DNA of 60,075 nucleotides from Hyphomicrobiales bacterium (GCA_027069645.1 JALXEI010000159.1:1-60075), one strand, 5' to 3'; shown: positions 55,501 through 60,075, counted from the stretch's first letter. Numbers are program-made.

Positions 55501-58500
55501 TGCACTCGTAACCGGTGATTTTGATGCATCGATCGGTGGCAATCCCGATGCCGCAAAAATTGCACGTAAAATATTTGCTCTTGATCAGGTGGAGGTTGGT
55601 TCGCACACCCATACCCACCCTTTCAATTGGGAGTTTTATGATAAATACAACCGTCATCTTGAACTTGAAATGGTCGAAAAACAGGCAAAAAATTCTTCCG
55701 CGCGTGGCTCGGGGATCATCGCGCTTCTGCAAGGTCTTCTGAAAAAGCCGACACCGCGGCAAAAAAATATAAAATATATTGCCGGATCTGGTGACATGCC
55801 ACGCGCGTATATGAAAAAACCTTTCAATACAGAACAGGATATCACCGTTTCACTGAAATTGGCAGAAAGTCTTGCCCCGAAAGGGAAAACGGCTCGATTG
55901 ATGCAATGGAGCGGCAATACCAGACCATTTGAAGCCGCTATTCGTGCGGCGCGTCTCGCCGGTGTTTACAATATGAATGGTGGGGACCCGCGTTTTGATG
56001 TGGAATATTCGTCCATTGCCTATCTCTCTCCACTCTCCAGAATGGTGGGAAACGAACGGCAGATCTATGCTGCGGCCAGCAATGAAAATTACTACACAAA
56101 TGACTGGACCGGGCCATTTTATGCCTTTTCGAACCTCGTCAAAACACTGGAAAATACAGAAAACCCGCGGCGCCTCAAGCCTTTCAACCTCTATTATCAT
56201 ACATATAGTGCCGAACGGCAGGCCTCTCTAAAGGCGGTTAAATCACATCTTGAACGAGCACGACATGGACGCTACACGCCTGTACCGGCATCTGAATATG
56301 CTGCCATCGCCGACAGTTTTTTCAAGGTTGAAATCAGGCAAATAAACGACCATAGCTGGACAATCCATAATCGGGGCCATCTCCAGACCCTGCGCTTTGA
56401 CAATGCCGTGAAACTGGAGGTCGACTGGCGCAATTCACGCGGTCTTATCGGTTCAACTCGCCATCAAAACGCCCTGTATATCGCACTGGACGCAAGGAGG
56501 AAGAGCCCGCTGGTCGTTCTGAAACATATTCCGAATACCCGCCGCGGGAAAACATATTCTGTTGAAAAGTCGCCAAGACCCGTTCTCAATGACAGTCGCT
56601 GGAAGATCGATAACCTGACATATGATCAGTCCGGCTTCCGTTTTCGGGCACAGGGATTTGGGCAGGGGGATATGTCCTGGCGCGGTCTGAAATCCGGTGC
56701 CTGCTCGATCATTGTAAAAAGAGGTAGCCGATTGCTCTGGAAGAAAACAGCAAATATCCCGAGAACCGGACAGTTGAACTTTTCCATTGCAGCCGATGCG
56801 CGCACGGCACCGGTCTACGTCAGTATCAATTATGCCCCTCGAATGCCGGGAATTGAAAGGAGCCTGGAACATTGAACGGTTTTCATGCCAGGCTCTTTAT
56901 TGTTTTCATACTCGTTCTTCTATTGGGAATCAGGCTCCTTCCCGATGATGACGAGCATATAACCATGTTGCTGCGGGACAAGCACTACAGCAAGGCCTTC
57001 CGGAAGCTGAAAGAAAGATTTGCTGCCGGAGACCGTCAACGCTTTACCCTGATGCGATTGTATGAACTCCACGAGCTCTATGGAAATGAAGAAGAAATGC
57101 AACGCATGCTGGCGATTTTCAGGGCGAAACACCCGGACGATATTTTCGTGCAGGAAAAACTGGCCGATCTCTTTTTTCGAACCAGTCAATATGAACGCTA
57201 TCTCAATCAACTCGAACTGTTGATAAAAAAGGCTCCCAAACGTGAATATGCCGAAAAACTCATCGCCAGACTGGAGCTGAACGGCGATATAACAAGAGAA
57301 CGCAAATTGCTTGAAAAATTTCAATCACTGCCTTTCTTCAGCGCAGAACATGCCGGACGACTGGGGCTTATCGAGCTGAATTCCGGAAACAATCGCGCGG
57401 CTCTTCGTCACCTGAAACGCATGGACCAAATAGATCAGAACAACCAGGAACTTTCTGTTCCCCGTCTTGCACTGTTTCGTTTGCTGCTGAAAACAGGCCA
57501 GGCCGACGAGGCGGCCAATCGCGCCGGGAAATGGATACGGAGAGGTCAAAATGTCCAGAATCTTTTTTTATTGATGACCATGCAATTGCAGGAACGGGGG
57601 CGAAATGATCTGGCTATCCGGCTGGCGACCGATGCCCAGAGGCAAAACAGTGCCCCCCTGTTCTATCTTGTGGAATATCTCGTGCGACGCAGACAGATTT
57701 TACAGGCCCGGATCCTCCTTGATAACTGGCGAAATGGCACTGCCAAGCCCTCTAACAGGGAACGGGCACGCTATATCGTCCTGCAACTGGAAGCTCAAAA
57801 CCCGTTGGCCGCTATAGCTGAATTAAATGCAACAGGAATTCAAAATATATCCGCTGACGACCTGGTGAAGATTGGCGAGGAACTGGCCTTGCAGAATCAA
57901 ACAGCCCTGTTGCGAACATTGCAACCGTTTTTCCATCTCAAGGCCTTGCAACGACGCCCACTATTTGCTGCAAAGCTGTTTGCCCGGGAAGGAAAAAGTA
58001 AACTGGCGGCCTATTTCCTGAAGAAAACTCCGGTTGCAACACTTCGCCCCTACGTGCAAATGGACTGGGTTGCGACGTTTAACAGTGTGCATGGTGACCG
58101 GAAAACGCTGATCACACTTCGGGAAATGAAACGCAATGGAAAATTGTCGCGCCATCTATTAAAAGGTTATGCCGAACTCGCTGGCAAGCTGGGGGAAAAA
58201 AATGACTATGAATCCGCCTGGATTGCGCTCGGGGGAATGCCCGCCCGTCGGCTCCGATAAGGCCGTAAACCCATAAACAGGATCGGGAATGGTGTCAAAA
58301 GCGCAAAAATACGAGGTTAAAATGATCACCGCGCGTACTTTTGTACGAGCAAGATCGTTTTGGCCGGGGATTGCAACGCTTCCGGCATCCTGCTGACAGG
58401 GCATATTTGCTCCCCCGCTGTGTTGCATGCTATTGAAAACCGGAAGGTTTCTTGCGAACTTGCGCCTGGCGGGAAAACAAACCTGCTCCTGCTATTTCGA

Positions 58501-60075
58501 TCCTGTTTATGAGTTTACGGCCTAAATGACGGTTTTCGTTCCGGGGGTTAACTTTGACTAAAAACGCCGGTTTTGCAGCAATCACACGCCTGCTGCCTGT
58601 CCTCTCTATCCTGTTAATATTGTGCTCCGGCACCCCTTCAGGGGCGCGGTCCGGGGAGACATTGCCAAAAGACAAAACTGTGTTGTCACAAAAACCGGTG
58701 CCGCTAATGCCCGGAGACAGGATTAAACTGTCCTTTCTTGAAAAAGTCGGACTTTCATCCATCCCCAAAGATCACGATCCTGGTAACACCATGCTGTTGC
58801 ACTCTTTTTATGAACGCGCAGATCTTTCCGGCGAATACGAGATTTTCAGTGACGAGACGATATCCCATCCCGTATTCGGCCAGTTGTCTACCGCAGGAAA
58901 AACGTTAAAAGCTTTCGAACAACAACTCCTCACAATCTCCAGAAAAAGGATTGGTCAACAGATATATCTCCGTGTTTTCTTCGTCTCCCGGCCTCCTGTA
59001 TATATCCGCGGGCTGGTAGGGCGGCCAGGTGCCTATCGGTATGAAAAAGGAATGACCCTTTCCCAGTTGCTTTCTCTGGCATCGGGAATTTACCGCGGTG
59101 ACAGCAGGCGAACCCCTGCAAATATTCTTGCCAGTGAAGGCCCCCGCCTAGAAAGGTCAAAGCAAAAACTGGCGCAAATGCTGGTGCTACGCAGGCGTCT
59201 TCTTGCCGAAATCGCCGGAAAATCATCATTTGTCCCGGGAAAAAGGCCTGGCGCTCTGGTTGGTAAAAAACATGCACGGGAAATGGTAAAAAATGAAAAC
59301 CGCTATCTGCAACAGGTTTCGCAGTTGAGAAAAAAACGCCAAAAAAACCTGATTGAAGCAGACAGGGTTGCCAATGAACAAATAGAGGGAATGCTTGAAC
59401 AGGAAAAGATCGCCCGATTGCAAAAAGAAACCATCAGGAAAACCATTCGCAAATACAAGGATCGATACCGACGATCGCAGACCAGTGCTTCGATCAGATC
59501 TCAGGAGCTGATTACAAGACTGGATTTGCGGCAACTGGATTTGCAGATCAAGGAAAGTAAAATCCGGAGCGATCTTCTTGCAGCGCAGCAGGGAAAATTA
59601 CAAATTCAACGGGATTTTTCTGCAGCTGTTCTGGCTGAAACAGTCGAACTGAAGAGGCGACTTGAACGTGTAGAGAATGATATCGTCAATCTGGAAAGCG
59701 ATATTTCCATTTCAAAGAACCTGCTGGCACAGATCGGAAAGAAATCCATTAATAATGCCCCGACCGGGATACCGAAATCAGCGCTTGTCTACAAGCTGAA
59801 AAGACGCATCAAAGGCAAAATACAAAACCTTGAAGTCCATGAAGACAGTTTTGTCTGGCCTGGCGACGTGGTGCAAATCGGCCTGAGATAATGCCATAGA
59901 GTCAATTGCAATTTCCTTGATGCGCGTTTACGCAGGAATTTCGAGCACCTGCCTGGATGGAAAGGTAGTGTCCAGAATTTTTCGCACTTTTGTTTTGGGT
60001 TGGTGGGTGATCTGGTCAGGCGGTCATTTTCTGTTCCTTTAAAAGTTTCATATTGAGGTATCGCCTGGTGGACCA

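Follow-up and report, generated by a model that had tools for sequence, protein, structure and literature searches.

Organization of the locus

The DNA stretch analysed here, denoted the window throughout, comprises the 60,075 nucleotides (nt) of an entire contig from a Hyphomicrobiales bacterium (GCA_027069645.1, JALXEI010000159.1:1-60075). Towards its right-hand end it harbors a pel-like exopolysaccharide cluster of nine open reading frames (ORFs), in which genes assigned to polymer synthesis and modification are accompanied by one gene for a short tetratricopeptide repeat (TPR) protein of 462 residues (TPR462) and one for an OPX-type polysaccharide export protein of 445 residues (OPX445). 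A preliminary description, made from the sequence alone, had placed the latter two genes in a Pel-type synthesis context. This is borne out by the matches of PelF (NF038011), PelG (PF16933) and the PelA homolog (9cgy), on which the classification of the cluster as Pel-type rests. The coordinates and lengths given there for both genes are exact. The source organism is probably an alphaproteobacterium of the Hyphomicrobiales type, as its ClpX and NuoH proteins share 90%-identity clusters with a Hyphomicrobiaceae metagenome-assembled genome.

No beta-barrel partner is found in the window, in line with the preliminary description, and no gene for a PelB porin or another beta-barrel protein is present in the window cluster or beside the clusters of the related loci L006, L017, L019 and L020. 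Likewise, neither cluster nor flanks contain a candidate for the PelC lipoprotein in the window and these four loci, and genes for a polysaccharide co-polymerase (PCP), Wzx, Wzy or an initiating transferase are absent from the clusters of the window, L006, L017 and L020. Linked to this conserved Pel-type synthase cluster, no export candidates are found besides a porin-less TPR protein and an OPX protein assigned to the ExoF type. The features of the locus are compiled in Table 1.

Table 1. Features of the pel-like cluster and its right-hand border (window positions in nt; aa, residue numbers of the respective protein or ORF).
Feature	Position	Strand	Evidence
GalE-type UDP-sugar 4-epimerase	47362..48594	-	PF01370 4e-58; start probably at aa 77 of the ORF
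GH114-family glycoside hydrolase	48558..49772	+	PF03537 5e-25; TIGR01370 4e-70; start probably near aa 97
PelG	49755..51185	-	PF16933 1.3e-104, full length
PelF glycosyltransferase	51192..52703	-	NF038011 2.7e-135; DUF3492 and Glycos_transf_1
PelE-like membrane protein (PelE')	52675..53544	-	assigned by position; 34-44% identity to the L017, L019 and L020 counterparts
PelD-like short membrane protein (PelD')	53541..54323	-	assigned by position; tblastn to the L003, L006, L017, L019 and L020 counterparts
PelA-like protein, 807-aa ORF	54452..56875	+	PDB PelA 9cgy, E 1.9e-49
TPR462, 462 aa	56872..58260	+	weak TPR_19/TPR_14 Pfam matches; AlphaFold2 model
MITE-like 264-bp insertion	58260..58523	.	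26-nt terminal inverted repeats, 96% complementary
OPX445, 445 aa, assigned as ExoF-type (class-3-like) OPX	58554..59891	+	Pfam, AlphaFold2, Foldseek and profile searches
OPX445 aa 1-24, signal peptide or signal anchor, LILC	58554..58625	+	read from the sequence; disordered in the model
OPX445 aa 49-135, Poly_export (PES) domain with its N-terminal PGDRIKLSF strand	58698..58958	+	PF02563, aa 49-127
OPX445 aa 137-181, SLBB N-half	58962..59096	+	SLBB profile positions 2-32 of 55; strands and helix in the model
OPX445 aa 182-410, predicted three-helix antiparallel hairpin inside SLBB	59097..59783	+	AlphaFold2, Foldseek, hairpin-only matches
OPX445 aa 411-445, SLBB C-half	59784..59888	+	strands 411-419, 422-428 and 439-444 in the model
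3' end of IS256-family transposase gene	60016..60075	-	contig ends inside the gene; family read from translated L001 ORFs

The OPX445 protein

By its sequence matches OPX445 is assigned to the OPX family as a member of the ExoF type. The Poly_export and SLBB-end motifs named in the preliminary description are found at aa 53-61 (PGDRIKLSF) and aa 434-442 (VWPGDVVQI), respectively. Pfam matches are obtained for Poly_export (PF02563, aa 49-127, E 6e-5, 23.5 bits versus a gathering score of 28) and for SLBB (aa 149-179, E 5e-6, profile positions 2-32 of 55 only), both of them marginally under the gathering score. The closest solved structure is the class-3 OPX protein WzaB (9n9a), which is matched by the N-terminal part of OPX445 with E-values of 3e-5 for the single sequence and 9e-8 for a profile of the four-sequence subfamily, followed by Wza (2j58, E 4e-4). 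Foldseek searches with the AlphaFold2 model retrieve both Wza and WzaB at 1e-6.

An exhaustive search with OPX445 retrieves 2624 representatives with E<=1e-3, of which 594 also pass E<=1e-10. Most of these relatives comprise 400-500 residues and align as one continuous segment (residues ~50-442). Invariant positions in the alignments are Pro106 and Gly109 in the Poly_export domain, Pro148, Gly153, Gly159 and Gly178 in the SLBB N-half, and Arg417 and Pro436-Gly437-Asp438 in the SLBB C-half. The Poly_export/SLBB homology, by which the preliminary description was prepared to stand or fall, thus holds by the match to WzaB, the 2624 representatives and the invariant residues.

In the AlphaFold2 model of OPX445 (mean pLDDT 82) the SLBB domain is split by an insertion of ~230 residues, with helices 188-220, 238-307 and 312-398 placed between the two SLBB halves at pLDDT values above 90. 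The half-length Pfam match and the monomer model agree in this respect with the interruption by a helical segment that had been read from the sequence beforehand. Apart from the helices of this hairpin, the model contains only two short helices, both within the globular domains. The insertion site is identical in 18 aligned relatives, and the longest hairpin helix, with 87 residues, corresponds by arithmetic to ~130 Å. Since the polypeptide chain stops 10 residues past the start of the PGD motif, a Wza_C-type outer-membrane helix is missing; the last modelled element is strand 439-444, and this tail of 10 residues compares with a family median of 24.

The only hydrophobic stretch, as read from the sequence, is the N-terminal signal sequence. 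A TTG start at 58554 provides a signal-peptide-like N-terminus and fits the homologs better than the public ENA gene call (394 aa, P0001; gene call at 7919 in L001), which starts at Met52 and thereby drops the signal sequence as well as the first conserved residue of the OPX domain.

The TPR462 protein

The AlphaFold2 model of TPR462 (pLDDT 85) consists of a hydrophobic helix (aa 4-21, nt 56881-56934) followed by ~13 helix pairs, and it does not contain a single strand. As the model is all-helical and 462 residues leave no room for a further domain of that kind, TPR462 is devoid of a porin, which substantiates the earlier assessment of a porin-less TPR protein with one N-terminal transmembrane (TM) helix. 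Foldseek searches with the model lead to TPR superhelices of a generic kind, and the 50 matches listed do not include PelB. A single-sequence search of the PDB gives no match, and a word-index search identifies two relatives, both situated on very short contigs. The start of the TPR462 gene overlaps the stop codon of the PelA-like gene, thus forming a translationally coupled pair, and counterparts of 452-489 residues occupy the same position in L006, L017, L019 and L020. On the basis of the model, TPR462 is regarded as an inner-membrane-anchored TPR scaffold and as corresponding, in position and in architecture, to the N-terminal TM and TPR part of PelB, minus the porin.

Conservation of the module in related clusters

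The relatives of OPX445 identified by word-index search originate from Bradyrhizobium, Rhizobium, Sinorhizobium and Stellaceae and carry precomputed assignments to PF02563, PF10531 and PF25994 (HH_AprE). In its source one of them bears the name 'exopolysaccharide production protein ExoF'; a further relative stems from a Hyphomicrobiaceae metagenome-assembled genome (MAG). The genomic context was surveyed for the five nearest OPX relatives for which it is readable, covering G+C contents of 42-64%. All five are located inside pel-like clusters with GH114, PelD'E'FG and, in most cases, a homolog of PelA. In four of the five the OPX gene comes directly after that of a TPR protein of 452-489 residues and is the last gene of the cluster.

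Three of the loci, L017, L019 and L020 (42-58% G+C), display the same gene order as the window, with PelG, PelF, PelE' and PelD' on one strand and the PelA-like protein (~800 aa), the TPR protein (463-489 aa) and the OPX protein (487-492 aa) on the other, GH114 being found upstream wherever the contig extends that far. Sequence identities to the window proteins amount to 63-67% for PelF, 49-55% for the PelA-like protein, 30-32% for the TPR protein and 29-32% for the OPX protein (E 1e-48 to 1e-70 for the latter two). Being preserved in three loci of the same order, TPR462 and OPX445 are encoded by real genes and not by chance ORFs. In Bradyrhizobium sp. HKCCYLS2038 the cluster comprises GH114, PelD', PelF, PelG, GalE, a 452-aa TPR protein and a 466-aa OPX protein with HH_AprE, and in a metagenomic lineage of 64% G+C it comprises PelD'E'FG, OPX, GH114 and PelA'.

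Altogether, the pairing of Pel-like genes with an ExoF-type OPX is observed in at least six lineages. The OPX proteins of lineages sharing the module are only 25-32% identical, so that a local event, as the term 'replaced' in the preliminary description would suggest, is not supported. TPR and OPX proteins are the fastest-evolving members of the cluster, yet they are always retained. More distant members of the OPX family are found in Wzx/Wzy-type contexts or next to ABC transporters and adaptors, and the pel-linked OPX proteins therefore constitute a branch of the ExoF-type family. Profile scans of genome and metagenome contigs with a four-sequence alignment retrieved only multi-SLBB OPX proteins, in Methylophaga and on three metagenome contigs, none of them pel-linked.

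The right-hand border of the cluster can be deduced from L017, in which genes for GalE, DUF2269 and DUF502 directly follow the OPX gene, marking it as the terminal gene of the cluster. These three are ~70% identical to genes in the flank of the window cluster itself (71% for GalE). Past the OPX gene, L019, L020 and Bradyrhizobium carry unrelated genes. A canonical pelB/pelC pair just past position 60075 was considered and, as far as sequence beyond the end of this contig can be judged from other assemblies, rejected: a second assembly continues into IS256 fragments at this point, and the relatives continue into unrelated genes. A 422-aa gene downstream of the cluster in L020 was dismissed as a barrel candidate, its product being a low-complexity anchored protein. 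In L019 the PelF and PelG genes are broken into several frames (892-3184), for which assembly errors seem likelier than pseudogenes, the remaining genes of that locus being intact.

The helical hairpin

In the preliminary description the inserted segment had been taken for a PCP-like coiled coil. This assignment is not upheld, since TM helices flanking the hairpin are missing and the matches in structure and profile searches are the adaptors LipC and HlyD; furthermore, OPX445 has no Wzz-family match in Pfam. Foldseek superimposes the OPX445 hairpin on LipC (5nen) with an E-value of 4e-5, a TMt of 0.70 and a root mean square deviation of 2.0 Å over 203 columns, and it also retrieves HlyD (5c22). 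The family profile matches the type I secretion adaptor LipC over the hairpin at 1.2e-17. The hairpin of OPX445 alone matches those of the nearest relatives P0022 (3e-14) and P0023 (8e-10), the latter of which carries a weak PF25994 match. The link between the OPX445 hairpin and the adaptors hence runs via structure and via transitive homology through P0023, as the hairpin of the window subfamily has diverged too far for a direct sequence match.

The similarity is confined to the hairpin. No match to HlyD_3, HlyD_D23 or Biotin_lipoyl is found in OPX445, in which the hairpin is flanked by SLBB halves instead, whereas two adaptors encoded elsewhere in the window (20164-21393 and 25344-26423) carry HlyD/lipoyl-type domains. 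Nor is the design unusual, as the preliminary description had suggested; it is a common one. It characterizes a large ExoF-type family (the 594 representative clusters at E<=1e-10) that has been on record since 2010, when a long central helical region homologous to membrane-fusion proteins was described for alphaproteobacterial ExoF-related OMA (that is, OPX) proteins (Xiao, Wang & Saier 2010, PMC2850547).

The hairpin is kept in clusters without a PCP gene, from which it follows that its role is not solely the docking to a PCP. In L008 (10001-15691), which belongs to a Stellaceae MAG, a hairpin-bearing OPX gene lies directly upstream of genes for an ABC exporter and an AprE-type HH_AprE adaptor. 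An arrangement of this kind could be the source of, or the partner for, the grafted hairpin.

Proposed export model and alternative explanations

It is held probable, with moderate confidence, that TPR462 and OPX445 constitute the export module of the conserved pel-like cluster and that the OPX hairpins dock to an outer-membrane channel encoded elsewhere in the genome. According to this model, PelF, PelG, PelD' and PelE' would make and translocate a polymer rich in N-acetylgalactosamine, which would be trimmed by the PelA-like enzyme and the GH114 protein on the TPR scaffold. The chain would then be carried through the periplasm by an oligomeric OPX ring, either periplasmic or tethered to the inner membrane, and the hairpins would form a helical tube docking to the unlinked channel, most likely a TolC-family protein, as HlyD/LipC-type adaptors dock to TolC. 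A separate channel is called for because OPX445 itself cannot cross the outer membrane, and hairpins reaching up to this membrane fit best with their adaptor-type fold, their length of ~130 Å and the lack of a PCP in the system. Docking to TolC is accordingly the favoured arrangement by analogy with the adaptors. The more far-reaching proposal that a Pel-type clade has dropped the PelB porin together with PelC and secretes its polymer via an OPX ring with hairpins plugged into TolC is plausible but put forward only tentatively.

In another part of the window (20164-26423) a 1065-aa RND pump is encoded together with its adaptor, and so is a second adaptor of the HlyD family. No ORF of the size of an outer-membrane factor is present beside the pump or beside the second adaptor in the ORF list of the window, which makes an unlinked TolC-type channel likely in the source genome.

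Several observations weigh against the proposed docking of hairpins to an unlinked channel. Within the window no gene for TolC or another outer-membrane channel is seen. Solved OPX rings are octamers, whereas TolC-docking adaptors are hexamers. The direction assigned to the hairpins relative to the Poly_export ring is adopted by analogy, and Cys24 of OPX445 could be lipidated. Regarding the hairpin sequence, PF25994 is not among the Pfam matches of OPX445, the profile of the window subfamily does not find LipC, and a comparison of the OPX445 hairpin with adaptors by hhalign gives a probability of 0.7, which is not significant. Furthermore, the window subfamily has other residues in place of those usual for the family at the hairpin tip (Leu304, Gly313), and its tip is longer by four residues. 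Finally, the MITE-like element separates the TPR and OPX genes, and expression of the locus is putative.

The strongest competing explanation, though rather unlikely, places the OPX ring right underneath the outer membrane, tethered by a lipid at Cys24 or by a partner protein, with the hairpins reaching down to PelDEFG and the TPR protein and the polymer leaving through an unlinked Wzp- or PgaA-like barrel. Hairpins of ~130 Å would then serve as a built-in bridge in place of the missing PCP, which comes close to the idea of the preliminary description. The sequence LILC at aa 21-24 resembles a lipobox, the N-terminal part of OPX445 has its best structural match in WzaB (9n9a), not one PCP gene was found across the pel-like clusters, and class-3 OPX proteins require lipidation as well as a partner beta-barrel (PMC9603273, PMC12819527). 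Contrary to what such tethering would suggest, a strict lipobox is present in only 3 of 138 members of the ExoF-type family and in neither P0022 nor P0023, the long basic N-termini of which are followed by a hydrophobic helix as in signal anchors. Moreover, position -1 of a lipobox is not typically occupied by Leu, as it is here. In addition, none of the loci has a linked beta-barrel gene, while Wzp genes reportedly adjoin those of class-3 OPX proteins (PMC9603273, PMC12819527), and the hairpin resembles TolC-docking adaptors and not PCPs.

It is also conceivable, but improbable, that the module is decaying or silent in this particular strain; this would be compatible with the other explanations, all of which concern the ancestral function. 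Signs of this kind are the MITE-like element between the TPR and OPX genes, the IS256 fragments abutting the OPX gene, the inverted orientation of the cluster relative to L017 and the short PelD'. On the other hand, all nine ORFs are intact and of full length, the MITE-like element is intergenic, and in a second assembly from another sample the encoded proteins are 99.5-100% identical, the OPX protein differing in 2 of 445 residues.

That the TPR and OPX genes are mere neighbors of the pel-like genes and serve another pathway, for instance an unlinked exo-like Wzx/Wzy system, is highly improbable: despite the Wzx/Wzy-type and ABC/adaptor contexts of other family members and the relative named ExoF, all five nearest readable relatives, spanning 42-64% G+C, reside in pel-like clusters, the TPR462 start overlaps the PelA-like stop, and Wzx, Wzy, PCP and initiating transferase genes are not found nearby.

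Synthesis and modification genes

The 807-aa PelA-like ORF has no Pfam match. Its residues 474-680 align to residues 605-810 of PelA (PDB search, 9cgy), i.e. to the deacetylase region, and the public gene call is shorter, with 766 residues and a start near 54575. To the N-terminal 470 residues no match could be assigned. The functions of PelA appear to be split, to judge from these matches, between a deacetylase-type PelA homolog and the separate GH114 protein, which may supply the hydrolase function. A GH114 gene is also present in L004, L005, L006, L019 and L020.

Neither of the membrane proteins at the PelE and PelD positions matches a Pfam or NCBIfam family; for the latter, this includes the GAF and GGDEF domains, neither of which is detected. 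The PelD-position protein is shorter than its counterparts (204-260 versus 319-375 residues), the choice between two adjacent genes being ambiguous in some of the loci compared. It aligns to the relatives over the membrane part only and ends in a charged, helical C-terminal tail. The usual control of Pel synthesis by cyclic di-GMP may be absent or different in the window cluster.

Mobile elements and flanking regions

The element listed in Table 1 as resembling a miniature inverted-repeat transposable element (MITE) is inserted directly after the TPR462 stop codon, and without it the gap between the TPR and OPX genes would measure ~30 nt. Short-read assembly is interrupted at this element, as seen in the Logan contigs L016 and L002. 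A second copy with 90% identity is located at 9982-10241 of L001 within an IS256 region. The last part of the window (59892-60075) corresponds to positions 9104-9287 of this near-identical contig, in which the transposase gene cut off by the end of the window continues. By our own reading, the L001 ORFs at 9228-9506 and 10231-10644 represent N- and C-terminal IS256-type fragments with the MITE-like element between them.

In the window the genes for GalE, DUF2269 and DUF502 lie on the GH114 side of the cluster (42906-48594), whereas in L017 they follow the OPX gene (11259-13805). The pel-like cluster is thus inverted in the window, possibly through the adjacent insertion sequence.

Further upstream on the minus strand (36572-42816) lies what looks like a complete operon for the uptake of vitamin B12. 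It is headed by a cobalamin riboswitch (42579-42816, 123 bits), and its genes encode a TonB-dependent receptor, a periplasmic binding protein, a FecCD permease, an ABC ATPase and TonB.

Comparison with known systems

In synthase-dependent systems a TPR protein is fused to or paired with a beta-barrel, while Wzx/Wzy and ABC systems employ a PCP together with an OPX protein. The locus described here shares components with both. The search for a published Pel/OPX hybrid, which was limited to open-access papers and preprints, yielded none, in agreement with the preliminary description. According to Saidi et al. 2022, a crossover of OPX/PCP schemes with synthase-dependent pathways had not been identified (PMC9603273), and Bundalovic-Torma et al., who report that the outer-membrane components of Pel systems are often lost or diverged, make no mention of OPX proteins (PMC7112194). 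The type of OPX protein is already known, and it is its pairing with a porin-less TPR protein in a Pel cluster that looks new.

With the PelB/PelC system of P. aeruginosa (PMC12141448) the window shares homologs of PelF, PelG and PelA, and TPR462 retains the N-terminal TM and TPR layout of PelB as well as the position of its gene beside that of the PelA homolog. It differs from this system by the lack of the porin and of PelC and by the OPX gene in the export position. A further comparison is provided by the 48 'pel-like' Hyphomicrobiaceae clusters of the epsSMASH preprint (10.64898/2025.12.21.693542), with distant PelA, PelB (TPR), PelD and PelE homologs and no PelC. Like the window, they stem from the same bacterial order, are centred on pelF and pelG and contain a TPR 'PelB' homolog. 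However, they are described as six-gene operons from pelA to pelFG, and no OPX protein is listed in the main text, the supplementary note or the Foldseek table, whereas the window and five other loci have an ExoF-type OPX gene within a cluster of divergent gene order. For pel-like clusters of Hyphomicrobiales reported without PelC, a concrete candidate for the export route is thereby provided.

OPX445 has the same domain order as S. meliloti ExoF (TC 1.B.18.1.1) and other ExoF-type OPX proteins, with the hairpin inserted at the same point of the single SLBB domain, and like them it is devoid of the Wza_C helix. The systems differ in their partners, ExoF serving a Wzx/Wzy pathway that employs ExoP as its PCP and OPX445 being encoded with PelA'D'E'FG and a TPR protein without linked PCP, Wzx or Wzy. 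The window subfamily is moreover set apart from the ExoF type by its diverged hairpin with the four additional tip residues and by the lack of an adaptor match by sequence in Pfam or the PDB. The class-3 OPX proteins that function with Wzp (WzaX/S/B of Myxococcus xanthus; PMC9603273, PMC9601211, PMC12819527) resemble OPX445 in consisting of Poly_export and SLBB domains without an outer-membrane-spanning helix, and WzaB provides the best solved structure for its N-terminal part. They are, however, short (median 256 aa, PMC9603273), hairpin-less lipoproteins encoded beside a beta-barrel and working with a PCP, none of which applies to OPX445.

The three-helix antiparallel form of the predicted hairpin is shared with the LipC/HlyD adaptors, but the lipoyl and beta-barrel domains of the latter are missing, and it is an OPX ring domain that carries the hairpin instead. 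Because they lack a PCP, the pel-like clusters offer a clean setting for determining the role of the adaptor-like hairpin, including docking to TolC. If the proposed route is correct, it would amount to a direct crossover between three designs of export, namely the synthase-dependent one, the OPX-dependent one and that of the tripartite pumps, and would account for the requirement of TolC for the ExoF-dependent secretion of succinoglycan in S. meliloti, the reason for which was termed 'so far not understood' (PMC2912261). A functional precedent exists in the BgsA-BgsB-TolC system, in which export of a mixed-linkage beta-glucan by the synthase BgsA and the adaptor BgsB depends on TolC (PMC13438883), i.e. 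a synthase-dependent polymer leaves the cell by way of an adaptor hairpin and TolC.

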